Position numbers and translations under genes: made by a program. A stretch of DNA of 64,000 nt from a virus (lineage: Duplodnaviria > Caudoviricetes): the IMG/VR virus record IMGVR_UViG_3300017911_001818, positions 32,003 to 96,002 of that record; one strand, given 5' to 3'. Positions 6,358 to 63,782 of this stretch are shown piece by piece (the first letter of the stretch is position 1; each line of letters starts with the position of its first letter). The notes below the pieces were generated by a model that saw only the letters and a list, made by a program, of their open reading frames with translations, was not told where the DNA came from and did not search any database.

Positions 6358-6358
6358 A

Positions 6359-41808: not shown

Positions 41809-43680
41809 ATGGCAACAGTAATCGCATCAAATCAACTAGACTTTGAGTTTATCAAAGGAAGAATTATTGATTTTATGAAGGCTCAGACAGAGTTCGAAGA
41901 CTATGACTTCGAAGCCTCTGGATTATCTGCTATTGCTGATGTCTTAGCTTTCAATACACACCAGAATGCTTTGCTTGGTAACTTCGCAATTAATGAGTCG
42001 TTCCTTCAAACAGCTCAGTTGCGTTCTTCTCTGGTGAACTTAGCTCTTAACTTTGCGTATATTCCTAGAAGTAAAACTGCAGCATTAGCGCAAGTTAATC
42101 TGACATTGAACCTTACGGCTGCAGCAATTAAACCAGAAACTATTACCCTTCCTGCAGGTACAGAGTTTACCTCTGTTCTTGATGATGTCACATATACATT
42201 TAGAACAGATGTAGAATATACAGCAAGAATTGACTCGGCAGGTCTGGGTATCTATACTTTTGTCGATGAGGATGACAATTTAGCAGTTCCTATTCGTGAG
42301 GGTGTAGAAAAAACTAAAACATTCTTGGTTGAAACTGCACAGGAACGTCAGATTTATGTCATTCCAGATGACAGTCTTGATCTTAGCACTTTAAGAGTAA
42401 GAGTGTTTGAAGACGGCGCAGATACTGAAGGCACTGCATACCTTACGATCGGGCAGTTAACTGGTGGATTTAATGCAGAGTCTAGACTCTACCTTCCTTT
42501 AGAAACATACAATGGTTACTATGAGTTGAACTTTGGCGATGGCACACTGACTGGTGATGCTCCTGATCCTGGAAATATTATTCGAGCCAAGTATATTTCA
42601 TCTAACGGCGCAGCTGCTAATGGCGCTGAAGTCTTTACGCCTTCCTCTACAGTTAGTGTAAATGGAACAAGCTACAACTTAACAGTGACAACTGTCTCTA
42701 AGGCTGCATTCGGAGCAGAGAAAGAATCTGCAGAAAGTATTAGACAAAACGCCCCATTAAACTATCTTGCTCAGGGCAGACTTGTAACCCCTCTGGATTA
42801 CGTCGCTGTAATTTCTAATGCGCTCCCAGGAATTAAATCTATTAATGCTTGGGGCGGAGAAGATAACGTTCCAGAACCAAAGTTTGGTAAAGTATTAGTT
42901 TCAATTATCTATGAAGATGATATTCCTGCAGTAACTAAAACTGCAGTAGAACAAAGGATTCAGAACGAATTTTTAGATCAACTTTCGATTACATCTATTG
43001 GTTCAGAAATTGTACAACCAGAGTTTACTTACTTAAATGTAACAACTCAATTAAAATATAATGCGGGACAAACTGCATTAAGTAGACGTGCATTAGAAAC
43101 TAAAATTCAAAATGCGATTAATGTATACTTCCAAAATAATCTTGGAAAGTTTAATCAGATTTTCCGCAAATCTAAGTTGAGTTCTTTTATTGATGCTTCT
43201 GATGCTTCGATTCTTTCTTCTAAAGTTTCTGTAGATATGGAGAGTAGATTTACACCCGCTTTTGATGCGGTCTCTGTTAAGTTCATTAAAGCGGATTATA
43301 CTTTACAGTTCTTAAATACCATCGCAGCTCCAGATGATGAAAATGTGATTGTTAGTTCAGATCAGTTCGTGTTAAACGGCAAGATATGTTCGATTAGGAA
43401 TAAAATTGGTAGCTCTGCCAGCACAAAACTTCAGATTATTGATGCGGATGGCAATCTAGTTGTTAGCGACATTGGTAATTACGAACCAAGTACAGGTAAA
43501 GTTATTTTGACAGGGTTTGAACCTACATCTATTTCTTCTGGAGAAACCTTCTTAAAAATTATTGCTACTCCTGCGGATGATTCTAATATCAAACCACTTA
43601 GAAATAACATTATCAATTTAAATCAAAATTCTGTATCTGCTCTGCCAGATACGAATGTTGCGAATAGCACGGTAATTTAA
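41809..43680 (+). CDS. gp6: baseplate wedge subunit gp6
   Basis: LDF..IK, F.DYDFE.SGLS...DVLA.NTH, NESFL.TAQLRSS, FGDG, R.VT..DY, WGGEDN. Confidence 0.95.
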   Translation: MATVIASNQLDFEFIKGRIIDFMKAQTEFEDYDFEASGLSAIADVLAFNTHQNALLGNFAINESFLQTAQLRSSLVNLALNFAYIPRSKTAALAQVNLTLNLTAAAIKPETITLPAGTEFTSVLDDVTYTFRTDVEYTARIDSAGLGIYTFVDEDDNLAVPIREGVEKTKTFLVETAQERQIYVIPDDSLDLSTLRVRVFEDGADTEGTAYLTIGQLTGGFNAESRLYLPLETYNGYYELNFGDGTLTGDAPDPGNIIRAKYISSNGAAANGAEVFTPSSTVSVNGTSYNLTVTTVSKAAFGAEKESAESIRQNAPLNYLAQGRLVTPLDYVAVISNALPGIKSINAWGGEDNVPEPKFGKVLVSIIYEDDIPAVTKTAVEQRIQNEFLDQLSITSIGSEIVQPEFTYLNVTTQLKYNAGQTALSRRALETKIQNAINVYFQNNLGKFNQIFRKSKLSSFIDASDASILSSKVSVDMESRFTPAFDAVSVKFIKADYTLQFLNTIAAPDDENVIVSSDQFVLNGKICSIRNKIGSSASTKLQIIDADGNLVVSDIGNYEPSTGKVILTGFEPTSISSGETFLKIIATPADDSNIKPLRNNIINLNQNSVSALPDTNVANSTVI

Positions 43681-44615
43681 TGGCCTCTACATTAACAGAT
43701 TATAACAGAAGAGATCCAAACTTTCAACAGCCACAGGTTGAAACGATTGTTCCTGAGCATTTTAAGGAGCAATACCCAACATTAGTGACTTTTCTTAAAA
43801 AGTTTTATGAATATCTCGAAGTTGCTGCTGGACGCAATAATCTGAGTGATGTTTTTTATATTCGTGATGTAGAAAGCACTTCTGAAGATTTTCTAGACTT
43901 TTTATTTTTTGAAAGTATTAATGGTCTCGGCGCAGACTTTTTCAAGTTCCCAAGACTGACACTCAAGTTTATTCCAAACTTCTATCCGATTAAAGGCACA
44001 CAGGTTTCTGTTCCTGCATTCTTTAGATATATCTATGGTGTAGACTCAGAACAGTTTTATCCAAAAACTAGGATCTTTAATGTCGGGGAAAGTCCGATCG
44101 GCGCTGAATCTTTGAGATTTATTCAAGATTCTAATTTTTATCAGATTCTTTCTATTCAGATTAAATCTCCTCTTGGCATTAATCAGTGGAGAGACGTTTA
44201 TAAAAAATATAATCATCCAGCTGGATTCGCTTTGTTTGCTGAAACACTTTTTGAGAAAACAGCAACAAACTCAATCATGACCGCTCCTCTCTCTATTCAG
44301 GATAGTGCGGCTGGTGAAGTCACCTTGGAACAATTTGGTATAGCCTCTGCAGCTGCAGTTGGTAGTACTACTGGTGTTGATAGTGATGCTGCGCTCAGAT
44401 TCTATGTTGATCGTGGCATTCAGTTCTACCAAGACTCTATTGGCGAACTTACTACTGCACAGAAAGGCGAAAATACTACTATCGCTGATGTCCTTAAGAC
44501 TAATTCTGGCCGCTTCTCTTCAACTGATAGCGATACGTTCTCGGATAGCTCGCTCCAGACGATGGATGAAGACATTTTTATGTTTAGACCAATTAGTGGA
44601 TTAGATTCTGCTTAA
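43680..44615 (+). CDS. gp7: baseplate wedge subunit (gp7-like)
   Basis: PEHF...YP.LV.FL..FYEY, FY..KGT, IQDS.FYQ..S, W...YK...HPAGF. Confidence 0.75.
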   Translation: MASTLTDYNRRDPNFQQPQVETIVPEHFKEQYPTLVTFLKKFYEYLEVAAGRNNLSDVFYIRDVESTSEDFLDFLFFESINGLGADFFKFPRLTLKFIPNFYPIKGTQVSVPAFFRYIYGVDSEQFYPKTRIFNVGESPIGAESLRFIQDSNFYQILSIQIKSPLGINQWRDVYKKYNHPAGFALFAETLFEKTATNSIMTAPLSIQDSAAGEVTLEQFGIASAAAVGSTTGVDSDAALRFYVDRGIQFYQDSIGELTTAQKGENTTIADVLKTNSGRFSSTDSDTFSDSSLQTMDEDIFMFRPISGLDSA

Positions 44616-44618
44616 CGA

Positions 44619-44626
44619 TATAAATA
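44619..44626 (+). promoter_or_regulatory. T4 late promoter
   Basis: Intergenic TATAAATA. Confidence 0.85.
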
Positions 44627-44657
44627 AACTTAAATATCTTTTGTAAGAAGGTAAAAG

Positions 44658-45674
44658 ATGACCAGACAAAATATCTCTACTGGTAGTACAGCAAACGACG
44701 GAACTGGAGATACCCTCCGTAGCGCTGGTACTAAAATGAACGAAAACTTTGTTGAACTATATCAGGCTTTTGGTACAGACAGCAATAATTTGGGCGCAGG
44801 TATTACCTTCGATAGTGCACAGATTATTTTCTCTGGCGCAACAAACACGACCACACTTACCCGTCAAGATCCAAGCACTGACGTAACTATTAATCTTGGC
44901 GATAGTAATGGCGAAGTTGTAGTTATCCGCTCTGATAATACAGTTAATTTTGTTGATTCTACTGGAACAGCCTCTAAGATTCTTTACGGAAACGTATATA
45001 GCAATATTGGTGACCTTCCTTCGGCAACTACCTATCATGGTATGTTCGCACATGTGCATGCTACCCAAAAAGGTTATTTCGCCCATGGCGGAGCTTGGCA
45101 CGCATTAGTAGATAGTGACACATTTACTTCTAGGACAGATTTAAAGTTAGTAAACCCTAGAATTGATACGCATGTATTTGATAATACCGGAAACTTTGAA
45201 ATTTTAAACTTTGATAATGTTTCTGGTTCTCCAGTTAACAATGTTAAAATTTCTAATGCTGAAACAGGTAATGCCCCTACTATTTCTACCGAGGGTGGAG
45301 ATACAAACGTAGGTCTTACTATCTCAGCGAAAAATAATGGCCCGATTACTCTTGAGGGTACAGTAGTTTATGGTTCTTCTGTTTTAACTGCAGGTTCGGA
45401 TTCTGCTTTAGATTCAAACTCAAACTCATACCTTTTTAACTCAGCAAGTATTAGACATTTTGATTTACATGATGGAGCTACTACTGGGGAGATTAAAAGG
45501 TTATTAAATAGAAGAGACATAGATATTATTCTTCATGGTAATTTTGAAACATATTCTGCTGCATTCTCGCAGGTAACTATGACCGATAAAATGCTTGTTA
45601 CTTGTATGTGGGATGGTGTTGGTAATAAATGGTTCTTCGATAAAGATTCAGATGTTAAACTCGTATTTGCTTAA
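44658..45674 (+). CDS. baseplate wedge/tail fibre connector (gp9/gp10 N-terminal domain)
   Basis: RQNI.TG..ANDGTGD.LR.AG.K.N.NF.ELY. Confidence 0.82.
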   Translation: MTRQNISTGSTANDGTGDTLRSAGTKMNENFVELYQAFGTDSNNLGAGITFDSAQIIFSGATNTTTLTRQDPSTDVTINLGDSNGEVVVIRSDNTVNFVDSTGTASKILYGNVYSNIGDLPSATTYHGMFAHVHATQKGYFAHGGAWHALVDSDTFTSRTDLKLVNPRIDTHVFDNTGNFEILNFDNVSGSPVNNVKISNAETGNAPTISTEGGDTNVGLTISAKNNGPITLEGTVVYGSSVLTAGSDSALDSNSNSYLFNSASIRHFDLHDGATTGEIKRLLNRRDIDIILHGNFETYSAAFSQVTMTDKMLVTCMWDGVGNKWFFDKDSDVKLVFA

Positions 45675-45686
45675 AAGGTTCAATAA

Positions 45687-47027
45687 ATGACAGCTATCGT
45701 AACAAATGACATTAAAAGGCAGCTACTGCAAACTGTATTGACAGATGTTGCAGACAGCGCCAACTATTATTACATTGGTATCGGTAAGTCAGATCAGTGG
45801 AACATTTCTGATGAGGCTCCAGTAATCATTAACAGTGAAAAACAGAAGCGTGATTTTAGAACTGGCCTTCAGTCAATTATTAGAACTACAGATGCATCTT
45901 TCGTTGTTTCTAGATATAACTGGACCTCTGGTACTATTTACAATGCATACACTGATTTAAATGTAACGAATACTAATTACTACGTGCTTACTGCTAACAA
46001 CAGAGTTTATCTTTGTGTTCAGCAAGGTAGAAATAACAACGGCGTAGCGCAAACTTCTACAGTAGACCCAGAAACAACTGGTACAACTACTTCTGCTAAG
46101 TCTACATCTGATGGTTACGTTTGGAAATATTTGCTTACGTTAACTGCAGATAATGCAAACAAGTTCCTTTCCGCTAACTTTATTCCTGTTTCTAAAGTCG
46201 ACTCCGCTGCTGGTTTGGGTACTATCTTACAAACGCAATTAGATGTTCAGCAAGCTGCAGATTCTGGCCAAGTTGTAGGATTTAGAGTAACAACACCAGG
46301 ATCTGGATATACTTCCGCCCCAACAGTAACTATTAATGGCGATGGAACAGGAGCTCGAGCAGTTGCTACGCTTACTGATGCAGGTGGTATTGGTAAAGTT
46401 GAAATCAAGGACTCTAGTGGAACATTGGCGTTTGGCTCTGGTTACTCGTTTGCTTCTGTAGCATTAAGTTCTGGTAGCGCTGAAGTTTCTCCTATTATTT
46501 CTGCTATTGGATTGGGGAATGATCCGAGAGAAGATTTAAATGCCACATCAGTAATGTTAAACGCTAAACCTAATGGTTTACAAAATAACTCATTTATTGT
46601 TCAAAATGACTTTAGGCAGATTGGTTTAATTAAAAACCCAAAGAAAGTAGCTACTGACTCTGACTTTACAGATACTGATGCTATGGCTCTCCGTAAATTA
46701 ACCTTGTCAAGTATCGTTAATTTTGATAGTGATAATTCGAGAGACGCTTTAATTGTTGGTGGAACGAGCGGAGCTAAAGCATTTGTAGACGATAAAAGAG
46801 GTTCTCTCTTCTTATATCATCAGAATGACAGTACAGGATTTAAGCCATTCGAAGCTGGCGAGCAAATTAGCGACGTTAATAATGGCAGTAGAACAGCGAC
46901 GATTGATACTGATTCTGATGGTGAAGTTAAATTATTTGATAATCAGATTCTCTATATAGAAAATAGAGCTGCTGTTGTTAGAGATACCGCTCAAACAGAA
47001 GACGTTAAAATTATTGTGCAATTATAA
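45687..47027 (+). CDS. gp8: baseplate wedge subunit gp8
   Basis: RYNW.SGT.Y, YYV.....VY.C, DGYVWKY, DFRQ.GL..NP, LYIENR....R...Q.ED.K. Confidence 0.9.
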   Translation: MTAIVTNDIKRQLLQTVLTDVADSANYYYIGIGKSDQWNISDEAPVIINSEKQKRDFRTGLQSIIRTTDASFVVSRYNWTSGTIYNAYTDLNVTNTNYYVLTANNRVYLCVQQGRNNNGVAQTSTVDPETTGTTTSAKSTSDGYVWKYLLTLTADNANKFLSANFIPVSKVDSAAGLGTILQTQLDVQQAADSGQVVGFRVTTPGSGYTSAPTVTINGDGTGARAVATLTDAGGIGKVEIKDSSGTLAFGSGYSFASVALSSGSAEVSPIISAIGLGNDPREDLNATSVMLNAKPNGLQNNSFIVQNDFRQIGLIKNPKKVATDSDFTDTDAMALRKLTLSSIVNFDSDNSRDALIVGGTSGAKAFVDDKRGSLFLYHQNDSTGFKPFEAGEQISDVNNGSRTATIDTDSDGEVKLFDNQILYIENRAAVVRDTAQTEDVKIIVQL

Positions 47028-47040: not shown

Positions 47041-49887
47041 ATGCCTAACTCTTTTACTAATACAACTTTTAGTACTACGTATAAAGACGATTTTAAAGAT
47101 AGCGATCATTATCATCGGATTCTCTTTAATTCTGGTCGTGCGTTGCAAGCTAGAGAGCTCACTCAATTACAAACTATTACGCAGAATGAGTTAGAGCGCC
47201 TTGGACGGCATATTTTTAAAGAGGGTAGTGTTGTTCTTCCGGGAGGACTTACTCTCGATAGAAATTATGAATTTGTAAAGTTAGAAACATCAGATACATC
47301 AGCATTTTCTGTTGGTGATGTAATTCAAGGTTTAACAAGTTCTGTTCAAGCTAAAATTCTTCAAATCGTAGCGGCTACTGACACAGATCCGGCAACTTTT
47401 TATGTAAAATACATTAATTCGTCTACTTCTACTGGAGTAGTTGATGAACCTGTTAGATTTACTCCTGGTGAGTTTGTTCAACGCACAGCATCTTCGGATT
47501 CTATTCGTGTTCAGGTTGTAAGCATCCTAGGAAACTTTGCAGTTGGCCGTGGTACGAGAGCTTCGGTTAATAATGGAGTTTATTTTACACGTGGCCACTT
47601 CGTCTCAGTGACGCCACAATCGGCTCTGGTGAGCAAATATTCAGATACACCCAATGAAGTTATTGGAATGAAGATTGTCGAGGATGTAATTACTGTTTCT
47701 GACACTAATGCTCTCTATGATAATCAAAATAATAATATTCCTAATTTAACTGCTCCTGGTGCAGACAGATATAGAATCACATTAACATTAGCTATAGAAA
47801 GTGAATTAGATAGCGGAGATAACTTCTTCTCTATTAATGAAGTTTCTAATGGCCTTTTATTAAAAGAAGTCGATGATACTGAGTATGCTCGAATCGACAC
47901 TGAACTGTCAGCTAGAACGAAAGAGGAGTCTGGCGATTATATTGTAGAGGGCTTTACCTCTGTAATGGAGACTGGAGACTCAGATAGAGTATTATCTCTA
48001 AATGTTGGAGGCGGTATTGCTTATGTCGACGGTAGAAGAGTCGCAAGACCAAATGTTGTACCTATCGTAGTAAATAAGCCAAGAGAAACAGAAGTAGTTG
48101 AAGAAACTGTCTCAGCTAATTTCGGTAATTATGTCAGAGTAACAGCTCCAACGCTTTCTGGAATTATTCCCAATATTGATGTTCTTCAAACTGTTACATT
48201 AAAAAATGCTGTAAATTTTGGTGGTTCTGAAATAGGAACTGCTCGAGTTCGCTCTTTAGTTAAAGATGGTGCTAACTATAGATTGCACCTTTTTGATATT
48301 AAAATTAATGATGGTTCTAAATTTAGTGAAGCCAGAAGTATTGGATTAACTACAGGTCACTTTAATTTAATTACTGAAGGTGGCGTAGCAGTTATTAAAG
48401 AAGCTGTTAACAATAACCTTTTCTTTGGGGTTGGTAAGATTAGACCATCCCTCGTAGATGATGTCACATTAACTGTCCAAAGAAGATTCGAAGCAACAAC
48501 TGATGGCACAGGTGTAGCAACTTTGAGTGGGTTGGGTACTGATGAATCATTCTCAAACTCAACCAGCTGGATTGTTGCCTTAGACAGTGCAGCTGCGACT
48601 CAAATCCTTCCCGATGCTACAGCGACGAACGCTGGAGAAATTACAACAGGAAGGCCAGCAGCAGAAACAATTGAAGTAATTGCATTAGTCGATAAAACTG
48701 CCAGCGCTGTTACGATTCGCCCTAAGACTAGAACTGTTTCTAATCAAATCGGTCTTACTGTTGATTCTGATGGTACAGGCGTTAAATTTATTAGACTTGA
48801 CAATCCAGATATCTTTAAATTAAATAGCGCAGTCGATTCTGCTACTAGCGTATCTGTATTAAATAGATTTAGTCTTGACAATGGACAAAGAGATAATTTT
48901 TATCTAAACGGCAGACTTATGCTAAAGTCTGGGTTTAGTGTGCCAGCTGGTCCGATCACAGTAAACTATGAATACTTTGAGCACGGTGCTGGAGATTTTT
49001 TCGCAGTCAACTCTTATGATGTAAACGACATTGGATACCAAAATATTCCGAAACATATTTTATCCAATGGAACAGAGGTTGACTTACGGAACTTCTTAGA
49101 TTTTAGACCATATAGAGATTCTGCTGATGGAAGTTTTACAGCCTCTAATGTTAACGAACTTCCGATTAATACTGATACTATTGCTGCTGACATTACTTAC
49201 TATAAAGGTCGTAATGACATTTTAGTGCTAACTCCAGATCAAGAAGTCAAGTATATTGAGGGTATTCAGGCTCTAGATAATAGATTAACTCCTGAAACTC
49301 CAGCGTTAAACTTAAAGATTAAAGAATTTCAACTTCAACCATTTACAGATGATTTAGAAGATGTCGATGAGACATTTATTGAAAATAGAAGATTTACAAT
49401 GCGTGACATCTCTGCTATTGTAGAGCGCATTGATAATATTGAAGAGGTAGTTTCTCTCAATTTATTAGAAGCTTCTACAGCATCGCTTGAAGTGTTAGAT
49501 TCTGATGGTAACCCGAGATTCAGGAATGGTTTCTTCGCAGATAACTTTGCAAACCTATTCTATTCCGATATCGAGAATGAACAATATACTGCATCATTCA
49601 ACTTACATGATCAGCTACTTCAGCCAGATTTCGTTGAAAATGAAGTTCCTTTAGTTTATGACTCAGCTGATACTGCGACGAGTAACACTAAACTGACAGG
49701 TAATGCTTTAACTCTCGATTATACAAGTAGTGTATATATAAATCAAAACTTGGCCTCTGAAACTGAAAACATCAACCCATTTGAAGTTATTACATTTACA
49801 GGGGAGCTAAAGCTTTCTCCAGAAGTTGACGAATGGGAAGAAAGAAGGTTTATAACTAGAACTGTTAGAAGAATCAGAACTTTTTAA
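47041..49887 (+). CDS. large virion structural protein (DUF4815/VrlC-like), N-terminal part
   Basis: Y.DDF.....YHRILF..GR.LQARELTQLQ, APGADR, RT..ESGDY.V, DFRP, RFTMRDI, GFF.DNF, ENINPF. Confidence 0.85.
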   Translation: MPNSFTNTTFSTTYKDDFKDSDHYHRILFNSGRALQARELTQLQTITQNELERLGRHIFKEGSVVLPGGLTLDRNYEFVKLETSDTSAFSVGDVIQGLTSSVQAKILQIVAATDTDPATFYVKYINSSTSTGVVDEPVRFTPGEFVQRTASSDSIRVQVVSILGNFAVGRGTRASVNNGVYFTRGHFVSVTPQSALVSKYSDTPNEVIGMKIVEDVITVSDTNALYDNQNNNIPNLTAPGADRYRITLTLAIESELDSGDNFFSINEVSNGLLLKEVDDTEYARIDTELSARTKEESGDYIVEGFTSVMETGDSDRVLSLNVGGGIAYVDGRRVARPNVVPIVVNKPRETEVVEETVSANFGNYVRVTAPTLSGIIPNIDVLQTVTLKNAVNFGGSEIGTARVRSLVKDGANYRLHLFDIKINDGSKFSEARSIGLTTGHFNLITEGGVAVIKEAVNNNLFFGVGKIRPSLVDDVTLTVQRRFEATTDGTGVATLSGLGTDESFSNSTSWIVALDSAAATQILPDATATNAGEITTGRPAAETIEVIALVDKTASAVTIRPKTRTVSNQIGLTVDSDGTGVKFIRLDNPDIFKLNSAVDSATSVSVLNRFSLDNGQRDNFYLNGRLMLKSGFSVPAGPITVNYEYFEHGAGDFFAVNSYDVNDIGYQNIPKHILSNGTEVDLRNFLDFRPYRDSADGSFTASNVNELPINTDTIAADITYYKGRNDILVLTPDQEVKYIEGIQALDNRLTPETPALNLKIKEFQLQPFTDDLEDVDETFIENRRFTMRDISAIVERIDNIEEVVSLNLLEASTASLEVLDSDGNPRFRNGFFADNFANLFYSDIENEQYTASFNLHDQLLQPDFVENEVPLVYDSADTATSNTKLTGNALTLDYTSSVYINQNLASETENINPFEVITFTGELKLSPEVDEWEERRFITRTVRRIRTF

Positions 49888-49900: not shown

Positions 49901-52171
49901 GTGTCGCATACTATATTTGGCGGTGTAGACGTATCAACTTCACCATTACGAACTGCGAGTGGAGGTTTAGTACGAACTTCTAGTGGAAGTATCGTTCAGA
50001 TCGGCGGTGGTGATCGAGCAGATCGGAATAACGATAGAAGAGATCGCACACGTGATCGAGAAGTCACTTCAAGTACAGAAACCGTGCGACGCACAGTAAG
50101 ACTTCTTCCAGACCTTCGTTCTAGATTAGTATTTTTTAAAGCAGAAGCTTTAAAGCCTAATACTCGTCACTTTATATTCTTTGATAACGTTCTGCTGACC
50201 GATCCGAATGGGAATAACTACACAAGAGAAGAAGCTACATTTGAAGAGTTTTCTAGAAGAAATAAAAATGCATTTATTAATTCTAGACAAACAACTCACC
50301 CTAAAGGTCCAACAGATTTGTACAGCGACAACAAAGGTGAGATTATCGGCTCTTTCTTAGTCCCTAACAACTCAGAGTTGACATTTAAAGCGGGAGAACG
50401 TGAAGTTAAAATTATTGACATTAGTGTAAATGATGATGATAAAGCAACTTCCTTCGCATCAAATGTATATAGAGGGCAAGGCAGAAGAATTACCACCACA
50501 AGAACAATCACTATAACGACAACTCAAAGAAGAAGAGATCCTCTTGCACAATCTTTTCAAATCCAAAATAGTGAAGGTGCATTCATAACTAAAATTGATG
50601 TTTACTTTTCGACCAGACCTGCAGCTGGAACCGCCGACGCAAACATTCCAGTTAGACTTGAAATCCGTCCTCTGAGAAGTGGCGTTCCTGCTCAAGAAGA
50701 GTTTGTAGTTGGTTCTCAAGTAATTAAACAAAGAGACGATGTTAATATTCCAGCAGATTTAGATGATTTGGACACTATCAGAGCTACACCAACTACGTTT
50801 GAGTTTGATCAGCCAATTTATTTACCAGGAAATACGCCTTTTGCATTTATTCTGATGGCAGATACTGTTGACTATAATGTTTATGTTGCTAAGGCTGGCG
50901 ACTTTATTATCGGTACAACCGACAGAAAGATTCGCAAACAGCCATCGCTCGGAAGTTTATTCATGTCTCAGAATGCTGTTACATGGACTCCAGATCAAAC
51001 AAGAGATATGATGTTTAGAATTCATAGAGCTAACTTTGTAAGCTCTGGCACCGCTCTCTTGGAAAATATTGATCTTCCTGAAGCGGTTCTTGATGTCGAT
51101 CCGATTACTACTGATAGTGGCTCTACAACTGTCACTGTGAATTATAATGGGCATGGCTTTGGAGTTGATGACAAAGTACAGTTATTTGGATTGGATTCTA
51201 ATACGACATATGGTGGTATTAGAGGAGCTAGTATACTGGGAGAAAGAACAGTAACAGCTATCGAAGGCAATAACTTTAGATTTAATGCAGATAGTGCAGC
51301 TACTTCAACTACAGTTGCTGGTGGTTCGAATGTAACAGCAACACAAAATATTCAAATGGATGTTGCATTACCTGTAATTGAGTCTTTAATTCCTAGTAGT
51401 GCAGCTACTATGACAATGAAAGGATCGTTCGCTAAAGGACGTTCTATCGTTCCTGCGAGTGGAGCTGTTCCTAATAATAAATCTAAAAATACTTTCCAGT
51501 TAAGCTCTACATTTGATATTGTATCTGGATCTCCAGTATTTTTTGAAAATCCTCAAGTTGTAGCCAGCCGTAGAAATGAAGATTCGGCGACAACTCTACT
51601 TGGCAGTGCGTCGACTCCAAGAAGATCTGTTAATGTTACTGCTTCTATGAGTACAACGAGCGACTTTATTAGTCCTGTTATTTTTACAGATAACACACAG
51701 TTGTTTGCATCTAACAATATTATTGATAATCAAGATTCTTCAGGGACTGTAAATGTATTCCCACATAGTTCTCCGTTTAGTTTTGTCAACGAAACTGATG
51801 CTTCTGGTGGTTCTTCATTATCTAAGCACATCACTAATCCGATTGTAATTGAAGAACCTGCTGTTGGCCTAAAAGTTATTATTGGCGCTAACAGACCTTC
51901 TGGAGCTAATTTTGATTTATACTTCAGAACACTTGAGGTAGGAAGCGACCTAAATATTGACGATGTGGCTTTCGTTAAAGCCACACAAGATACTCTTATT
52001 CAGACAGACGAAAATCGAGGAATTTTCAGGGATTATGAATATACCATTGGTGGTTTAACAGGAACACTAAATCCATTTACAACTTTTCAGTTGAAGATTG
52101 TAATGAGAAGCTCGAACAGTTCTAAGGTTCCAACATTTAGAGATTTAAGAGCTATCGCACTCGGAACATAA
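49901..52171 (+). CDS. large virion structural protein (DUF4815-like), C-terminal part
   Basis: LKPNT, DPLAQSF, TTF.F..PIYL, GSLF.SQN..TW, F..FQ.KIV......VP...DLR.IAL; GTG start with AAGGGGA Shine-Dalgarno. Confidence 0.85.
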   Translation: MSHTIFGGVDVSTSPLRTASGGLVRTSSGSIVQIGGGDRADRNNDRRDRTRDREVTSSTETVRRTVRLLPDLRSRLVFFKAEALKPNTRHFIFFDNVLLTDPNGNNYTREEATFEEFSRRNKNAFINSRQTTHPKGPTDLYSDNKGEIIGSFLVPNNSELTFKAGEREVKIIDISVNDDDKATSFASNVYRGQGRRITTTRTITITTTQRRRDPLAQSFQIQNSEGAFITKIDVYFSTRPAAGTADANIPVRLEIRPLRSGVPAQEEFVVGSQVIKQRDDVNIPADLDDLDTIRATPTTFEFDQPIYLPGNTPFAFILMADTVDYNVYVAKAGDFIIGTTDRKIRKQPSLGSLFMSQNAVTWTPDQTRDMMFRIHRANFVSSGTALLENIDLPEAVLDVDPITTDSGSTTVTVNYNGHGFGVDDKVQLFGLDSNTTYGGIRGASILGERTVTAIEGNNFRFNADSAATSTTVAGGSNVTATQNIQMDVALPVIESLIPSSAATMTMKGSFAKGRSIVPASGAVPNNKSKNTFQLSSTFDIVSGSPVFFENPQVVASRRNEDSATTLLGSASTPRRSVNVTASMSTTSDFISPVIFTDNTQLFASNNIIDNQDSSGTVNVFPHSSPFSFVNETDASGGSSLSKHITNPIVIEEPAVGLKVIIGANRPSGANFDLYFRTLEVGSDLNIDDVAFVKATQDTLIQTDENRGIFRDYEYTIGGLTGTLNPFTTFQLKIVMRSSNSSKVPTFRDLRAIALGT

Positions 52172-55526: not shown

Positions 55527-55562
55527 ATGTTATACATGTAATAACAAAAGAGTTTGCTCATC

Positions 55563-55910
55563 ATGGCAGAATATGCAGTGCTGACAGTTGACCAAGGCAC
55601 AGACACAATTTTTCAGCTTGAAGTATTAGATAGTGACAGGACTGCAAAAGACCTCACCGATCTAACCATCAATGCTAAATATAAGAAGTCGTATAACTCA
55701 ACTACTTCTACTTCATTTTCTGTCAATGTACCAACTCCAAAAACACAAGGTATTATTGAATTAACGGTAAATGGCACTGACACAAAAACATTAACTGCTG
55801 GCCGCTATGTTTATGATGTGGAATTAAAAAACGCCAATAAGGTGACTGAGAGAATCCTAGAGGGCATTCTTGAAATTAATCCTGGCGTAACTTTGTCTGA
55901 TTCGGCATAA
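55563..55910 (+). CDS. virion structural protein (BppU-like fibre adaptor)
   Basis: L.VDQG, DLT, KKSY.S, T..L.AGRYVYDVE, RILEG.....PGVT; start at ATG 55563. Confidence 0.75.
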   Translation: MAEYAVLTVDQGTDTIFQLEVLDSDRTAKDLTDLTINAKYKKSYNSTTSTSFSVNVPTPKTQGIIELTVNGTDTKTLTAGRYVYDVELKNANKVTERILEGILEINPGVTLSDSA

Positions 55911-55923: not shown

Positions 55924-58875
55924 ATGGCAAGAAGGATTACAGTCAAAAAGGTACTCTCTAGTATTCCAAATATTACAAAGCTCACGGGCTTTAGTGATGT
56001 TAATGATTCTGGATTGAGTGGAACTAATGGCTTCCTGAGATACGATTCAGACAATCAAAATTTTAAGTTTGTTTCTTTAGCAGATTTAGGTGTACAATCA
56101 GTCAATTCCATAACTGGTGCGGTAACAATCACAGGCGCTTCTGGAGTTTCTGTAAACACATCGGGCGACACTATTACTCTGACTGGTGCTGTAGATTCTG
56201 CTTCTGTTAATACTTTAATTGATGCTGCAGACACACACGATTCAGCAGCAGTACAGGCTCAAATAGATAGTAATCTAAATGCTTTAGACACACACGATTC
56301 AGCAGCAGTACAAGGACAGATTACAAGCACGATAAACGCATCATATATTAATGCTTTGACTATCGATGCTGATACTCTCGCCGGTAATGATTCTGCGTAT
56401 TATCTAAATTATAATAACTTCACAAACACACCAACAATTCCTACGGTCGATTCAGCTTCAATTCAGCCACTCGCCCGTGCTGCGATTTCAGCTGGAAATA
56501 ATGTTACATATGATTCGGCAACTGGTATAATCGGTACAGTCGGAACTGATTCGGCCACTGTAGTTTCGATCGCAGATTCTAGGATCAGCGCTGCTAGTAT
56601 TGGAGATCTTTCTAACGTAGATCTCACAGGAATTGTTGATGGTAGGATCCTTAAATATAATGCTTCTTCCGGTAAATTTATTATAGCAGCAGATGCTACA
56701 GACTCTGGCGGTGGAGTAACTACTGCAGATCTTGTGGTCATAGACTCCAGTGTATTTGGATCTTTATCTTACAATGGTGGGTCTGGTGTTTTTTCATACG
56801 TTGGTGTAGACTCTGACGATATTAAAACTGTAACAAATATTCCCTATGCCAATTTAACTGGCACTCCAACTATTCCTACTGTAGACTCTGCTACAATTAG
56901 ACCTCTTGCCAGAGCAGCTATCGTTGCTGGTACAAATATTACATATGATTCAGCAACTGGTGTAATCGCTTCTACTGCCTCTGGCGGCGAAGATCATGAT
57001 TCTGCCAAAACTCAGGCACAGATTGACTCTACAGTCACTATAGCATTCATTAATTCTTTGACTGGAACTTTGAATGCTGACACTCTTGGTGGCAATGACT
57101 CCACATATTATTTAAATTATAATAATTTTACTAACACGCCAACTATTCCTACTGTTGATTCTGCAACTGTTCAACCTCTAGCACGTGCAGCTATTGTCGC
57201 TGGTGCAAATATTACATATGATTCTGGCACAGGTATTATTGCGAGTATAGCCTCTGGAACTGTTGACTCTGCTGCTGTTAATGTATTAATTGCTGCCGCT
57301 GATACCCACGACTCTGTGGCAGTACAAGGACAGATCGATAGCAACTTAAATGCACTAGATACACACGACTCCGCATTAATTCAAGCTCAAATCGATTCTA
57401 ACTTTACAAACGATACTACATTCGTAAGAGTTGCTGGTGATCAAGTCACTGGGAATATTCAGTTTGTTGATAACGTACAAGCAAGATTTGGTGTAGGTGG
57501 TACTGATCCATACGACTTTAGAATTTATTCTACCGGAACGTCAAATCGAATTGAAGCAGGTGAGATTGACACACTCACCGTTGCGGCAGGAACTTTATTC
57601 TTTACTGATGCAAATCTTTTAACAACACTTCAGATTAATGCCACATCTAGCACTGATCTTTACTACAATAAAGTAAAGGTTGCTGAGACTACCTCTACTG
57701 GTATGTCGATGAACAGATTGGCAGCAGACTCTAGCGTAACTGTTGGTGGTAATGAAGTTCTTACTACTGCTAGTGATACTCATGATAGCGCTGCTGTTCT
57801 TGGTCAAATTAATGGAACAGTAAATAGAGATTATATAGTAAGCGCCATTGAATTTGAAGACGAAGAGTTCTTAACATTCGGGGACGACAGCGACTTTACT
57901 ATTACCCATAATGGGAATCATACTGTATTAAAAGATAAGGGAGCAGGTAGCCTCTTTATTGAAGGTTCTCAAATCCATCTAGCATCGCAGAATAATGGAA
58001 ATCCTATTTTCCTCACAACTGGTGATGGTGATGGTGTTAAGATCTTTGACTCTTCTGGCGATTTAAGACTTAATACTACAGATGCTGGTGTTAGTGTATT
58101 CGCAGGATTAAAATTAGACGGTAATGATGTTCTTACGACAGCAAGCACGATCGATGCTGACACTTTAGGTACAATTAGTAGCACTAGCTTCCTTAGATCT
58201 GATGTTAAAGATCAAAAGACTGCTGGTTCGCTGGTGATGAACGATGGCGTGGCCATTAAGTTTGGTACAGATTCCGATCATACCATTAAAGAAATGTCTG
58301 GCAACTTAGAGGTTAATACTGCTGGATCCGGACTTCTTAAAATGAATACTGCTGGCTTGCGGATTCATAATGAAGCTGGCACTGAAAATATGATTCTGGC
58401 CAGTCAAAATGATGCAGTAACACTTTATTTTGATGGAAACCAGAAAGCTGTCACCAGATCTGATGGATTTGAAGTTACTGGTCATTTAATCACTGACTCC
58501 ATTCAAACTACACATATTGATATTTTTGGAGAAATTACTAACAGACCAACCTCTGTTAATGCAGGTTCTGGTCAAACTATTGTAAAACAAGTTCCACACT
58601 TCAATTTAGCATGTTCCATTACATACAATATTCACATGTTTGATATCAACGGAACTACAACGAAAGGCGAAACATCATTTACCACTGTAGCATGTACTTT
58701 AGACAGCGATCTAAACACAGCATATACAGAGTTTGCCACATTATTTACAGGCGATAGCGAGTTTGGGTTCTTTGATGTTGATGCAGATTCAACTAATATT
58801 AATCTTAAATTTACTAGAAGATCCACTAGAGACGGTGTTATTAGAGTCGCCGCCGCTAAGACAATTTATCAGTAA
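55924..58875 (+). CDS. tail fibre protein with DS-rich modular repeats
   Basis: Repeats TPTIPTVDSA..PLARAAI.AG.N.TYDS, THDSAAVQ.QIDS and ADTL.GNDS.YYL; FG.DSD fibre motifs. Confidence 0.8.
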   Translation: MARRITVKKVLSSIPNITKLTGFSDVNDSGLSGTNGFLRYDSDNQNFKFVSLADLGVQSVNSITGAVTITGASGVSVNTSGDTITLTGAVDSASVNTLIDAADTHDSAAVQAQIDSNLNALDTHDSAAVQGQITSTINASYINALTIDADTLAGNDSAYYLNYNNFTNTPTIPTVDSASIQPLARAAISAGNNVTYDSATGIIGTVGTDSATVVSIADSRISAASIGDLSNVDLTGIVDGRILKYNASSGKFIIAADATDSGGGVTTADLVVIDSSVFGSLSYNGGSGVFSYVGVDSDDIKTVTNIPYANLTGTPTIPTVDSATIRPLARAAIVAGTNITYDSATGVIASTASGGEDHDSAKTQAQIDSTVTIAFINSLTGTLNADTLGGNDSTYYLNYNNFTNTPTIPTVDSATVQPLARAAIVAGANITYDSGTGIIASIASGTVDSAAVNVLIAAADTHDSVAVQGQIDSNLNALDTHDSALIQAQIDSNFTNDTTFVRVAGDQVTGNIQFVDNVQARFGVGGTDPYDFRIYSTGTSNRIEAGEIDTLTVAAGTLFFTDANLLTTLQINATSSTDLYYNKVKVAETTSTGMSMNRLAADSSVTVGGNEVLTTASDTHDSAAVLGQINGTVNRDYIVSAIEFEDEEFLTFGDDSDFTITHNGNHTVLKDKGAGSLFIEGSQIHLASQNNGNPIFLTTGDGDGVKIFDSSGDLRLNTTDAGVSVFAGLKLDGNDVLTTASTIDADTLGTISSTSFLRSDVKDQKTAGSLVMNDGVAIKFGTDSDHTIKEMSGNLEVNTAGSGLLKMNTAGLRIHNEAGTENMILASQNDAVTLYFDGNQKAVTRSDGFEVTGHLITDSIQTTHIDIFGEITNRPTSVNAGSGQTIVKQVPHFNLACSITYNIHMFDINGTTTKGETSFTTVACTLDSDLNTAYTEFATLFTGDSEFGFFDVDADSTNINLKFTRRSTRDGVIRVAAAKTIYQ

Positions 58876-60980
58876 GGAGCTATCGGGGAAAGTGAACCAT
58901 GGCAGCAGATAACAAAAACTTTATTGTAAAAAATGGCCTTACCGCACAGGGAGGTATTCAATCTGATTCTGATGTAGATGTAACTGGTGATATCAGTGCA
59001 ACTGGCACTGTTACCGGAGCTACTCTGAGTGGAAGTCTTGCCGCAACTAATCTTACTGGCAATATCGACTCAGATAGAATTACTCAAGTCGATGCCAGTA
59101 AATTAGTCGGTGGTATTGACTCTGATAGAATTACTCAAGTCGATGCTAGCAAAGTTCAAAACTTGCCAGCAAGTACAGATTCTGCTGCCACCCAAGCAAT
59201 GATCGACAGTTCTTTGGGAGTATTCGACGCTCATGATTCTGCCGCAGTACAAGGTCAGATCGATGCAAGAGTTACGCAATCTTTTGTTAATAACCTTAAT
59301 GTAGATGCTGAAACTCTTGGTGGTAATGATTCAAGCTACTTTACGAATGCCTCGAATATTATTTCTGGAACATTAGACTCTGCTCGTATTCCAACGCTGA
59401 TACTTAGCACAGATACAAACGGCAACTATGTTCAGTCTACAACTGCTGGTGGCGGTATTAAAGCTTTAAGTGCAGCAGGTGAAGGTGTAGACCAAACTAT
59501 TTCTGTTGACTCTAGTTTTGTTACAGGATTGTTTACAGGCGGTGATGGAATTAGTTATAGCACTGGTACTATTTCTCTTGACCCAACAGACAGCGCAACA
59601 TTTGAAAATATAACAGCCAAAAATAAATTATCCATTTTTGACTCTGCAGATGGTGTAGAAGTCGCTAAACTTGAAGGCGACATAGATCAAGGATTAACCA
59701 TTCATTCGCATGCGCATGCAACTGATGGTGGTATTCGATTCGTAATTCATGATACCCAAGATTCAGATTATCTTATTCTTTCTCAACCAACAGGCATTTC
59801 TGTAGTTAATCGTAGGATTAGAAATGTTGGAGCTCCTATTCAAGATCTGGACGCTGCAACAAAATCTTATGTGGATGGTGTCTCTCAAGGTCTTGCGATT
59901 AGAGATGCTGTTAAGGTAGCTACAACTGCAGCTCTTACAAGTACAAACGCCATTACTGCGATCTCATATGATAGTGGCGTTCTAGGATTTGGCGCATTTA
60001 TTGATATTACTGCACCAGCTGGTACAGGACAGGCTCTTGACTCTATTGATGGATTTGCCCTGAGTACTGGCGATAGAGTTTTGATTAAAGATGAAATTGG
60101 TGGAAACTTACCTTTCAACGGTATCTATACTTGGGATTCTGCTCGCAGGATTACAAGAGCAACAGACATGGACTCTGGTAGTGAGTTCAATGGTGGTGAG
60201 TTTGTATTCGTTCAAGAAGGTACTGTTAACGGTGGTAACGGTTTCTCACAGAAAGATAATATAACAGTAGTTGGTGATAGCGCTGTACACTTCGTGCAGT
60301 TCTCTGGTGCTGGACAAATTACAGCTGGAGATGGTATTGTTAAGGATGGCAATACTCTTAGTGTAGATCTTGCTGCCACCTCTGGTCTAGAATTCTTTTC
60401 TAGTGAGTTAAGGGTTGATGTTGATGCTTCGACGATGGAAATTAGTGGTCAGGGCGTTAATCTAAAAGATGGTGTTATTACTACTGATAAGTTTAACACT
60501 GCTGGCGGTACAGGCGTAACTGTTGATAATATTTTAGATAACGCTGGGCATACAACAGATAATATTGACGACGCTCGAATAGGTACTACGAATCAGTTCT
60601 ATAACACAACAAAAGGCGACTCTGATACTAAAGCATTAGTAGACTCTGGTTATGTGCAACCTCTAGCACGTGCAGCTATCGTCGCAGGTTCTAACATAAC
60701 CTATGACTCTGCCTCGGGTGTTATTACTGGGGTCGCAGCTTATGGAGATGCAAACGTTGAGGCTTTAGTAGACTCTGCTTATGTTCAGCCTTTGGCACGT
60801 GCAGCTATCGTAGCTGGTGCGAACATTAACTACGATTCGGGAACAGGCGTTATCAGTGGAGCTGCATCTTATGGTGATGCAGATGTTACTGCTCTTGTTG
60901 ACTCGGCTTATGTACAACCTCTTGCTCGAGCTGCGCTTGTAGCTGGTACGAATGTTACTTTTGATTCTGGCTCTGGTCGA
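56428..60980 (+). repeat. about 30-aa module VDS....PLARAA..AG.N..(Y/F)DS present three times in each of the two fibre genes
   Basis: Copies near 56430, 56865, 57140, 60640, 60770 and 60900 (approximate). Confidence 0.85.
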
Positions 60981-61352
60981 GTTGATTTACCTGCTAGTGT
61001 AGCAATTACAACAGGATTAACCGTAGGCGGTAATAGCGTTCTGACTACAGCCGATGAAGGTACTGGTAATGGGATTGATGCTGACACAGTAGATGGACTT
61101 GAAGCTGGTGCATTCTTAAGAAGTGGTGCAACTGATGCTTATGAAACTGGCACTTTAACATTTAACAGCGGAACAACGCTGACAGCAGCAGATGGAGCTA
61201 CGATCAATTTCGAAGGTGCGTCAGTTCCATTTACTGTAGCAAGCGGAACTAGCACAGTAACACACCTAGATGCAGATAAATTGGACGGTCAGCATGGTTC
61301 TTACTACAGAATTGATATTCTTGATTCTACAGGTACCACTTTGAATGTTTAA
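58899..61352 (+). CDS. tail fibre protein with DS-rich modular repeats
   Basis: NFIVKNGL, DAATKSYVD, GDRVL.KD....NGIY, FV.EGT.N, QFSGAGQITAG.G, DAD.LDG. Confidence 0.82.
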   Translation: MAADNKNFIVKNGLTAQGGIQSDSDVDVTGDISATGTVTGATLSGSLAATNLTGNIDSDRITQVDASKLVGGIDSDRITQVDASKVQNLPASTDSAATQAMIDSSLGVFDAHDSAAVQGQIDARVTQSFVNNLNVDAETLGGNDSSYFTNASNIISGTLDSARIPTLILSTDTNGNYVQSTTAGGGIKALSAAGEGVDQTISVDSSFVTGLFTGGDGISYSTGTISLDPTDSATFENITAKNKLSIFDSADGVEVAKLEGDIDQGLTIHSHAHATDGGIRFVIHDTQDSDYLILSQPTGISVVNRRIRNVGAPIQDLDAATKSYVDGVSQGLAIRDAVKVATTAALTSTNAITAISYDSGVLGFGAFIDITAPAGTGQALDSIDGFALSTGDRVLIKDEIGGNLPFNGIYTWDSARRITRATDMDSGSEFNGGEFVFVQEGTVNGGNGFSQKDNITVVGDSAVHFVQFSGAGQITAGDGIVKDGNTLSVDLAATSGLEFFSSELRVDVDASTMEISGQGVNLKDGVITTDKFNTAGGTGVTVDNILDNAGHTTDNIDDARIGTTNQFYNTTKGDSDTKALVDSGYVQPLARAAIVAGSNITYDSASGVITGVAAYGDANVEALVDSAYVQPLARAAIVAGANINYDSGTGVISGAASYGDADVTALVDSAYVQPLARAALVAGTNVTFDSGSGRVDLPASVAITTGLTVGGNSVLTTADEGTGNGIDADTVDGLEAGAFLRSGATDAYETGTLTFNSGTTLTAADGATINFEGASVPFTVASGTSTVTHLDADKLDGQHGSYYRIDILDSTGTTLNV

Positions 61353-61362
61353 GGAAATATAA

Positions 61363-62118: not shown

Positions 62119-62121
62119 ACA

Positions 62122-62994
62122 ATGGCTAGAAATCCGTACATTTCACAAACAGTACGCTCTGAACAAAACCTTTATGAAGATATTATTATCGAATCTCTTA
62201 AGATTTATGGTCAGGAAGTAGAGTATTTGCCGAGAACATTGGTCGCTGAAGATGTAATCTTTGGTGAAGATGTCGTCTCAAGGTTTGATGATGCATATAC
62301 TATTGAAATGTACTTAGAAAATACTGATGGATTTGAAGGTGATCAAGACCTATTCACAAAGTTTGGTGTAGAAATACGGGATAGGGCTACGATGCATGTC
62401 TCTCGTCGTAGATGGGATACTGTTGTTGGAGCGAATGTAGATAACAATAGGCCGAATGAAGGCGATTTAATTTATCTTCCGCTTTCAGACCAAGTATTTG
62501 AAATTATGAGAGTTGTGGACGATAAACCATTCTATCAACTCTCTAATCTACCAACATATAAACTTGACATCGAACTCTTTGAATACAATGACGAAGACTT
62601 TGATACTGGAGTTGAGGTAATTGATGAGCTTGAGGCGCTGGGTAATGTGATTAAGCTTACTCTGAATGCTTCGGATTCTGATGATCTTCAGATTGGAGAG
62701 AATATTCAATATCTGGTCGATAGTGCTGGTGGCCCGAAACTTGTCGCAGAGATTGTAAACTGGGATGCTTCGACTAATATCCTTGAAGTTGCTCATATTG
62801 GCTCTACAGACGGTAAGTTTAGAACATTCTCGGCTGGCACTTCTATTACCTCAGTTACCTCAGATATTACGAAAACAATCTCTGCGATTAATGAAGAATT
62901 ACAACAGGCTAATAGTCAGAATGCCTCCTTTGAAACTACAGGAGATGATATTATTGACTTCAGCGAAGGTAACCCATTTGGTGAGGTGACATAA
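62122..62994 (+). CDS. gp14: neck protein gp14
   Basis: SEQ.LYED.I.ES..IYG, GED..S.F, KFG.E..D, RP.EGDLIY.P, PFYQL, DFSE.NPFGE. Confidence 0.95.
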   Translation: MARNPYISQTVRSEQNLYEDIIIESLKIYGQEVEYLPRTLVAEDVIFGEDVVSRFDDAYTIEMYLENTDGFEGDQDLFTKFGVEIRDRATMHVSRRRWDTVVGANVDNNRPNEGDLIYLPLSDQVFEIMRVVDDKPFYQLSNLPTYKLDIELFEYNDEDFDTGVEVIDELEALGNVIKLTLNASDSDDLQIGENIQYLVDSAGGPKLVAEIVNWDASTNILEVAHIGSTDGKFRTFSAGTSITSVTSDITKTISAINEELQQANSQNASFETTGDDIIDFSEGNPFGEVT

Positions 62995-63782
62995 TGTTTA
63001 ATCAGCACTTCTATCACGAAAAGATTAGAAAATGTGTAGCAGTATTTGGTACGCTGTTTAACAATCTCTATGTGCTTCGTAAGGACTCCTCTGGTGCTGT
63101 TATTAGCCAGATAAAGGTTCCGCTGAGCTATGCCCCAAAACAAAAGTTTTTAGAGCGTATTCGTGAAACAGAAAATTTATCTGACGCTAAGTTAGCGGTC
63201 AAATTACCAAGGATGTCTTTCGAGATCTCCTCAATGTATTTTGACCCAAGTAGACAGTTACCAAAAGTCAATAACTTTACTCGCCTCGTTTCTACAGATA
63301 CTGGTGTTAGAACAAAGTTCTTCACAGCTGTACCTTATGTTATCAACTTTCAACTGAATATTCTTGGCAAGACAAATGAAGACGTAGTTCAGATTGTAGA
63401 ACAAATCCTACCGTTCTTTAATCCTTCTTATACTATTACAATGAAACCATTTAGCGATTATTCTGATATCACTGAAGACTTACCTATCTCTCTGATTGGT
63501 ATTAGTTTCTCTGATGATTATGAAGGGCAGTTAGAGAATAGAAGAACAATTACTTACACCTTAGACTTTGAAATTAAAACGCAGTTCTTTGGTCCGATTG
63601 CTGATAAAAAGATTATTCGCAAGGCTATTGTTGACCTAAAAGACTCTGACACTAATGGCATCATTGAACACTTTGAACGTATTACCGTTGTCCCAGATCC
63701 TGTTTCGCTAAATATTATTGGAGATAGTGACTTTGACACCACAACAACGTTCTTGTATCCAGGTGAAGGCGATAGTATCTAA
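62994..63782 (+). CDS. gp15: tail sheath stabilizer/terminator gp15
   Basis: FYHE.IRK....FGTLFN, VPL.Y.PK.KFL.R, LPRMSFE, QI.EQILP.F.P, DDYEG. Confidence 0.95.
   Translation: MFNQHFYHEKIRKCVAVFGTLFNNLYVLRKDSSGAVISQIKVPLSYAPKQKFLERIRETENLSDAKLAVKLPRMSFEISSMYFDPSRQLPKVNNFTRLVSTDTGVRTKFFTAVPYVINFQLNILGKTNEDVVQIVEQILPFFNPSYTITMKPFSDYSDITEDLPISLIGISFSDDYEGQLENRRTITYTLDFEIKTQFFGPIADKKIIRKAIVDLKDSDTNGIIEHFERITVVPDPVSLNIIGDSDFDTTTTFLYPGEGDSI

Follow-up and report, generated by a model that had tools for sequence, protein, structure and literature searches.

The outer tail proteins encoded in a 64,000 nucleotide stretch of viral DNA (the window; positions 32,003 to 96,002 of IMG/VR record IMGVR_UViG_3300017911_001818) carry a large excess of the dipeptide Asp-Ser (DS). 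This stretch forms the final 64 kb of a viral contig of 96 kb (G000) with an estimated completeness of 54%, and the phage is a member of an uncultured, psbA-less clade of marine T4-like myoviruses. The true unit is a hydrophobic or aromatic residue followed by Asp-Ser and then by Ala or Asp, less often Gly or Ser, with DS at its core; it is specific for Ser, conserved among relatives, and restricted to this clade and to certain of its virion proteins. An earlier reading made from the DNA alone (the sequence-only reading) had noticed DS in these proteins and proposed it as a candidate glycosylation sequon. We found the excess to be genuine and, among the readings considered, placed first, as a tentative preference, a clade-specific structural capping or turn element of the distal tail, and second, as possible, a Ser-specific modification.

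Expected DS numbers were computed from each protein's own composition. In the eight outer proteins pooled (both tail fibres, the gp7-like, gp9/10-like and gp8-like baseplate proteins, the DUF4815 protein, the protein at 52183-53463 and gp15), 108 DS were found versus 38.0 expected, an observed/expected ratio (O/E) of 2.84, and DS was the most deviant of the 400 dipeptides, the runner-up being SA with an O/E of 1.74. Similar dipeptides gave DT 0.83, NS 0.73, ES 0.63, DG 0.94, SD 1.26 and DD 0.45. By protein, DS was observed 35 times versus 8.7 expected in the 983-aa fibre (shuffle z 10; SD 9), 25 versus 7.7 in the 817-aa fibre (shuffle z 7), 8 versus 2.0 in the gp7-like, 8 versus 2.7 in the gp9/10-like and 8 versus 3.4 in the gp8-like protein, 9 versus 2.9 in the 426-aa protein at 52183-53463, 4 versus 1.5 in gp15 and, with weak enrichment, 10 versus 5.5 in the DUF4815 protein. 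The O/E over the remaining 62 open reading frames (ORFs) was 0.84; the inner tail proteins have 0 to 3 DS each, and the inner virion proteins show a weak deficit (19 versus 27.3, p ~0.06). These counts reproduce exactly all those of the sequence-only reading, whose remark that DS is scarce in the inner tail proteins was likewise borne out. Its description of the motif as pervasive across 43680-63782 holds for the eight outer proteins but not for the 756-aa virion protein at 49901-52171, which lies within that range and has 5 DS versus 5.2 expected.

Ser codons following Asp mirror general usage (71% TCN versus 68% over all Ser), so the signal lies at the protein level, and a cause at the level of DNA, namely a GANTC methylation site read as GAYTC, was rejected. 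An artefact of composition, repeats or chance could draw on the fact that the 108 sites reduce to 71 context clusters, roughly one third being copies within fibre repeats, that the gp8-like and DUF4815 proteins are weakly enriched, and that a cyanophage gp8 reaches 9 versus 4.9 by chance-level scatter. However, besides the high shuffle scores of both fibres, the excess outlasted harsh masking, with 12 DS versus 4.4 expected (p 3e-4) after 66% of the fibres had been masked as possible repeat copies; it is present in the six non-repetitive outer proteins (48 versus 21.6, Poisson p 7e-7); and it is seen again across 60 orthologous loci and in 120 homologues of the fibre. The artefact explanation is therefore already refuted. 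The per-protein dipeptide statistics proposed with the sequence-only reading thus show an enrichment that outlasts correction for composition and repeats, and the statement that repeat expansion alone is insufficient stands for the masked fibres as well as for the non-fibre proteins.

The residue after DS (n = 108) was A in 38 cases, D in 23, G in 11, S in 10, N in 8, T in 6, I in 5 and E in 4, in agreement with the earlier description of the sites as mostly DSA, DSD, DSG or DSS. W, Y, F, H and I were found at 2-3.5 times expectation immediately before DS, A at 3.4 times and D at 3.0 times immediately after it, and hydrophobic residues recurred at +3 to +7. The four-residue pattern [VILFYWMH]-D-S-[AD] occurs 36 times versus 2.1 expected in the outer proteins (about 17-fold), whereas the same pattern with Thr, Glu or Asn, or with SD reversed, is at or below expectation. 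Hairpin-type DSxG sites number 15 versus 3.3 expected. In the 983-aa fibre the motif is embedded in a 19-aa DTHDSAAVQAQIDSNLNAL-type unit and in a TVDSAxxQPLARAA...NITYDSATG unit, and in the 817-aa fibre in three 43-aa repeats with two DS each; inside the fibre repeats the sites recur at regular intervals of 9/10 and 21/22 residues, and a DTHDS repeat sets His beside DS. We also looked for avoidance of the motif elsewhere in the proteome and saw none: non-virion proteins contain the four-residue motif 4 times versus 1.6 expected, and there is thus no sign of an enzyme whose off-target action has to be avoided.

Orthologues of the gp7-like protein were collected from 60 IMG/VR loci (39-96% identity). 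In the orthologue pools, which are phylogenetically non-independent, the DS O/E was 2.78 for the gp7-like, 3.07 for the gp9/10-like and 1.73 for the gp8-like family and 2.3 for fibre homologues, and it ranged from 0 to 0.9 for the inner baseplate and hub families, except for the 40514-like protein (1.29). The 120 best homologues of the DS-dense N-terminal half of the 983-aa fibre had a median DS O/E of 3.0, and the DT O/E was 0.53 in 36 DS-rich relatives. In the gp7-like family, all 36 distinct orthologues have DS at both residue 150 and residue 234; where the Ser of a DS is replaced, Thr is the commonest substitute. Conservation is higher for the Ser of DS than for Ser elsewhere (0.58 versus 0.35, p 1.4e-4), and slightly higher for its Asp too. 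Across four baseplate families there are 31 majority DS columns, with a major/expected ratio of 1.66 versus a median of 0.38 for other dipeptides, whereas newly arising, lineage-specific DS columns are not in excess. The DS columns of the gp8-like family differ between deep lineages, and over 14 lineages its independent DS columns show only a modest excess (9.1 per expected site, versus a median of 6.8 for other dipeptides).

The enrichment was absent from T4, pelagiphage Mosig, the Prochlorococcus phage P-SSM2 (0.72) and the Synechococcus phage S-BM3 (1.06). Phage C48C1, the closest public record, has a weak DS excess in two proteins, most of its tail proteins being unenriched, and the relative G007 (154 kb, 85% complete) has no DS-rich protein and a genome-wide DS O/E of 0.87. 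We therefore rejected DS as a generic trait of T4-like tails; evidently, the motif is neither general to tails of the T4 type nor set by shared folds. Within a genome, DS richness is jointly present (G000, G006, G003) or jointly absent (G007, C48C1) across non-homologous proteins.

The structural reading that we put first, with reserve, may be pictured as follows. The hydrophobic residue would end a buried strand, the side chains of Asp and Ser would cap the backbone in the Asx/ST manner at the start of a short helix or a tight hairpin, and internal fibre repeats would have multiplied the motif. Hydrophobic N', Asp at the N-cap, Ser at N1 and Ala or Asp at N2 is a favoured pattern for a helix N-terminus, and the succession of these residues together with the regular repeat spacing in the phage fibre resembles N-capping and Asx/ST motifs and segmented fibres such as T4 fibritin. 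We infer a capping role because the excess sits in conserved rather than new columns, because the DS Ser is more conserved than other Ser, because the flanks look ordered and fit the preferences of helix starts and hairpins, as the DSxG excess illustrates, because spacing in the fibre repeats is regular, because DS richness follows protein families whether or not the enzyme cassette described below is present, and because non-virion proteins do not avoid the motif.

Several observations weigh against this reading. Thr also caps well, and Asx/ST caps accept S, T, D, N and G interchangeably and normally produce no three-fold dipeptide excess; the phage motif, in contrast, shows such an excess without interchangeability, Thr hardly replacing Ser either here or in the DS-rich proteins of relatives. 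To our knowledge DS is not enriched in proteins generally. T4's own fibres and baseplate have no DS enrichment, the orthologous baseplate proteins of Mosig, G007 and the cyanophages lack it as well, and C48C1 has DD, NY, EE and SS at the columns that are invariant DS elsewhere. In the gp7-like and gp8-like proteins G006 equals the window in DS richness, yet the two share only 1-2 of about 8 columns, as though selection acted on how dense the sites are and not on fixed structural positions. That non-homologous proteins of a genome gain or lack DS together may point to a factor acting in trans. Finally, the motif is found at extreme C-termini, namely those of the gp7-like protein (...GLDSA), the fibre assembly-like protein (...LSDSA) and gp15 (...GEGDSI).

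It is possible, and we rank it second, that hydrophobic-D-S-[A/D] is a Ser-specific modification sequon. A phage or host enzyme would then add a glycan or some other O-linked group in the cytoplasm, and this modification would coat the host-facing end of the tail. This proposal needs neither the analogy with Bacteroidota nor the glycosyltransferase (GT) at 54576 as writer. A short motif with 17-fold enrichment in the non-homologous, exposed proteins of a single lineage but missing from their orthologues elsewhere, the use of Ser only, DS positions that shift between deep DS-rich lineages while density is kept, the joint presence or absence in non-homologous proteins and the extreme C-terminal sites all speak for it. 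The Bacteroidota system likewise shows itself as sequon enrichment in exposed proteins (PMC12871550), and candidate writers are many on the contig (four GT8-like and two GT25 genes, a GT2, the tail GT8-like gene, methyltransferases and radical SAM proteins). However, no enzyme co-varies with DS, newly arising DS sites are not in excess within the window's clade, non-virion proteins do not avoid the motif, and the flanks look ordered rather than linker-like. Somewhat less probable still is the fuller version, in which the clade would use the motif as a Ser-specific sequon for a cytoplasmic, phage-directed coat over the baseplate periphery and fibres; the coat may consist of glycans, perhaps in connection with the hydroxylase-like enzymes of the tail module. 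It is unlikely that DS instead binds divalent cations or a host surface ligand and so stabilises or arms the distal tail in seawater. Metals and sugars are often bound through Asp and Ser, the motif is confined to host-facing tail parts of marine phages, and the DTHDS repeat places a His beside DS. Nevertheless, a lone Asp plus Ser makes a weak site, other marine T4-like phages do without the motif, and acidic loops are unenriched (D-x-D with x not Ser 0.91; DD below expectation; DxDxD not significant). Calcium-loop motifs were rejected on these figures, which leave the Ca2+-binding alternative of the sequence-only reading unsupported.

The sequence-only reading had invoked two known glycosylation systems, those of Bacteroidota and of staphylococcal adhesins. 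The Bacteroidota sequon, D-(S/T)-(A/I/L/V/M/T), accepts both Ser and Thr with a slight preference for Ser (PMC12871550); the next residue is L, I, V, T, A or S in about 90% of cases, G, D, N and E being rare or not tolerated, and the substrates are exported, non-cytoplasmic proteins glycosylated in the periplasm (PMC12871550, PMC8550257). Its enrichment in exposed proteins is visible in genomes (PMC12871550). The phage motif is similar in that Asp directly precedes the hydroxyl residue (ES and NS being unenriched), in that the excess falls on exposed proteins of a single lineage, and in that its commonest form, DSA (35%), is a legal Bacteroidota sequon. It differs in doing without Thr and in the next residue, which belongs to the L/I/V/T/A/S set at 61 of 108 sites (56%) and is D, G, N or E at 43%, with L, I and V together accounting for 7 (6.5%). 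T4-like phage tail proteins assemble in the cytoplasm, and no evident hydrophobic, signal-peptide-like N-terminus was seen in the eight outer proteins as judged by eye, no predictor having been run. The link to the Bacteroidota sequon is thus unsupported in acceptor and in following residue. In the staphylococcal system, SdgA and SdgB, which are GT-B enzymes, glycosylate Ser beside Asp in long SD tracts and thereby shield exposed adhesins (PMC3794999). The phage shares a Ser next to Asp, but its sites are isolated and SD is barely enriched; the outer proteins have no run of at least three DS or SD units (DSDS 0, SDSD 1), and no match to PF00534 (Glycos_transf_1, the GT4/SdgB type) was found on the 96-kb contig, which is 54% complete. 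This second analogy is likewise unsupported, for want of SD tracts and, on the contig, of an enzyme of the GT4/SdgB type.

Between the baseplate and fibre genes of the window lies a cassette of three plus-strand genes, encoding a member of a family of about 153 aa without a Pfam or PHROG match (53491-53973), a prolyl-hydroxylase-type double-stranded beta-helix protein (53942-54586) and a GT8-like glycosyltransferase of GT-A fold (54576-55295). It was conceivable that the last two hydroxylate and then glycosylate the fibres at DS, for instance via Asp hydroxylation, by analogy with the hydroxylation-dependent glycosylation of Skp1 or collagen; we consider this improbable. In its favour, many loci have DS-rich fibre genes immediately downstream of the cassette, with a pooled total of 785 DS versus 409 expected in the proteins encoded two genes downstream, both enzyme folds were confirmed by high-confidence models, and T4, Mosig, P-SSM2 and S-BM3, which all lack the cassette, are unenriched. 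However, presence of the cassette and DS richness are decoupled in both directions. G007 has both cassette enzyme genes intact (E 1e-92 and 1e-106), yet no DS-rich protein, and the loci L089 and L104 are cassette-positive and DS-poor. Conversely, no homologue of either cassette enzyme was found on the 61-kb contig of G003, which extends from tape measure to sheath and is DS-rich (gp7-like protein 10 versus 3.6 expected; fibres 38 versus 16.9 and 13 versus 4.4); G004 and G005 have DS-rich tail proteins and no cassette gene in searched stretches shorter than that of G003, and the DS-rich fibre loci L154-L158 have no cassette within 10 kb. Several of the comparison genomes are fragments, and gene absence in them is provisional. 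In addition, the hydroxylase-like protein has H-N-N in place of HxD/E iron ligands and, since all cassette-positive phages fall in one clade, the contrast between positives and negatives is confounded by phylogeny and amounts to one phylogenetic event at best. The phyletic pattern thus speaks against the cassette as an obligatory writer of DS, and the expectation that DS-rich orthologues co-occur with the GT at 54576 did not hold: DS richness is independent of the tail-embedded GT8-like/hydroxylase cassette.

The large proteins encoded three genes upstream of the cassette had a pooled DS O/E of 0.80. Some giant structural proteins at this position (1,500-2,100 aa) are nearly DS-free, with 0 versus 6.7, 5.2 and 6.0 expected (among L087, L107, L113, L136, L142 and others), and further giants are at expectation. 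Phyletic profiling of the DS-rich (G000, G006, G003) against the DS-poor (G007, C48C1) genomes returned a class II ribonucleotide reductase, a PstS-like protein, an IMPDH-like protein and a PF13640 2-oxoglutarate (2OG) oxygenase (21742-22296); with so few genomes, these genes, the oxygenase included, are a lead only. Relatives of the PF13640 gene are present in the DS-rich G006 and G003, in the latter as one domain of an ORF of 438 aa that lies amid its fibre genes, and no BLAST match to it was obtained in the DS-poor G007 and C48C1. The gene opens a run of oxygenases at 21742-25914, in which PF13640, two PF13759 and a JmjC gene are followed by an IMPDH/GMP-reductase-like gene and then by a GT2.

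The orthologue of 53491-53973 adjoins the other two genes in 51 of 59 non-redundant related loci, and in dozens of contigs from uncultured marine T4-like phages (L065-L150) the conserved cassette separates the baseplate genes from those of the fibres. In most relatives the small-protein gene is followed by the GT gene and then by the oxygenase-like one, the last two being swapped in the window. Among 50,697 phage records it was present in C48C1 only (positions 151149-153029). According to its AlphaFold2 (AF2) model (predicted confidence, pLDDT, 91), the protein of 54576-55295 is a genuine GT-A, GT8-like enzyme, so that the earlier call of a GT at 54576 was correct: Foldseek matched it to glycogenin (E 2.6e-9, TM 0.55-0.62), LgtC (E 3e-8), the catalytic domain of UGGT and GlyE, and it has the DxD motif of these enzymes, D83 and D85 being invariant in 29 family members. 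The matches include the protein-directed glycogenin, UGGT catalytic domain and GlyE, the last from the pneumococcal serine-rich repeat protein pathway, but identity to the GT8 matches is only 14-17%. Neither the window protein nor its family members matched the Pfam GT8 profile (PF01501), and the sole sequence-level signal was a weak profile match to glycogenin (E 0.09).

The AF2 model of the product of 53942-54586 (pLDDT 94) has P. putida P4H and PHD2 as its best Foldseek matches (E ~1e-5), and VIA aligned some 150 residues of it with PPHD, PHD2, Dictyostelium PhyA and ALKBH7 at Z 10-11; Pfam gave no match. Its invariant residues are H120, N121, N122, D156, H181 and R189, and an invariant W-H-N-N-A-N-A-P segment takes the place of the HxD/E iron motif of 2OG oxygenases. 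The protein is possibly a two-His variant, or else one that binds without catalysis. Alignment of its family by hhalign with the Asp_Arg_Hydrox proteins of Mosig gave a match over a 12-residue motif only. Genes of the Asp/Arg-hydroxylase family and other small oxygenase genes also lie beside fibre genes in Mosig (L063 17702-23955) and in another uncultured myovirus (L158 4337-4876), and this proximity of oxygenase and fibre genes appears to recur among marine T4-like phages. The cassette is a candidate for fibre modification, whatever its target.

The glycan island that the sequence-only reading had mentioned exists. Pfam scans placed a plus-strand island of sugar-nucleotide and glycosyltransferase genes at 1-14752, with two radical SAM genes, a UDP-glucose dehydrogenase-like gene, four GT8-like and two GT25 genes, methyltransferases, a HAD-nucleotidyltransferase and a cytidylyltransferase. 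GT8s in the host-recognition cluster of pelagimyophages have been interpreted as modifiers of host lipopolysaccharide (LPS) (PMC7029224). Modification of host LPS is an equally possible alternative role for the island.

The distal tail sets host range, and a motif at 17 times expectation sits on exactly those parts. Either it is a construction principle, not described before, in a large fibre family of marine phages, or it is the trace left by a system that modifies virions. If the sequon is true, tailed phages of marine heterotrophs would decorate their adsorption apparatus at sites predictable from a sequence rule, some marine myovirus host-recognition GTs so far read as LPS modifiers (PMC7029224) would be reassigned, and a second sequence-defined O-modification system of bacterial type would stand beside that of Bacteroidota, the first for a myovirus tail. 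If the motif is structural, it would be a signature by which to recognise the fibre family in metagenomes. Apart from this, the analysis defines a conserved cassette of a GT8-like, a prolyl-hydroxylase-like and a small protein beside the fibre genes of an uncultured clade.

The tail module is of the T4 type and lies on the plus strand, as established by Pfam and PHROG scans. A gp6-like gene (41809-43680) is followed by genes for the gp7-like baseplate wedge protein (43680-44615, 311 aa; PF23786 Baseplate_wedge, E 4.6e-12), the gp9/10-like protein (44658-45674, 338 aa; PF07880 T4_gp9_10_N, E 9.7e-10), the gp8-like protein (45687-47027, 446 aa; PF09215 Phage-Gp8), the DUF4815 virion protein (47041-49887, 948 aa; PF16075, E 1.2e-59; PHROG 358) and two more virion proteins, the 756-aa one at 49901-52171 (PHROG 358/877) and the 426-aa tail protein at 52183-53463, which has no Pfam or PHROG match. 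After the three-gene block come the 118-aa fibre assembly-like protein (55554-55910; PHROG 3304, L-shaped tail fiber protein assembly, E 1.1e-17), the 983-aa fibre (55924-58875), the 817-aa fibre (58899-61352; PHROG tail fiber 8745), gp13, gp14 and the tail sheath stabiliser gp15 (62994-63782; PF16724, E 6.5e-68). No homologue of the 983-aa fibre was found among solved structures, and the Mtd_N domain in its relatives spans the first 37 residues only. Residues 311-513 of the 817-aa fibre are homologous to a domain of PDB 9efk (orf22) and to a capsid decoration protein (9nx3). A C-terminal DS tail (LDSS, GDSI, VDSA, LDSDQF and so on) was present in 11 of 11 gp15-like proteins examined (the window and L067-L149), and it is kept even in lineages without general DS enrichment.

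A megablast search against phage records gave no match, cyanophages and pelagiphage Mosig are more distant than the uncultured 'Phage C48C1', and a literature search on C48C1 found nothing relevant. The psbA gene was not found in the window contig, in C48C1 or in three relatives that are 83-85% complete. As to the host, there was no match in genome contigs and no tRNA, and Pfam searches for CsgG and AspH were likewise uninformative. The phage DNA was met in sequencing runs of seawater and plankton metagenomes only. Upstream of the window, contig G000 carries one gene for a PstS-like protein that binds phosphate and one resembling class II ribonucleotide reductase genes (2-1072 and 20978-23203 of the contig; L184, L185); both are common to G000 and G006 and are lacking in G007 and C48C1.

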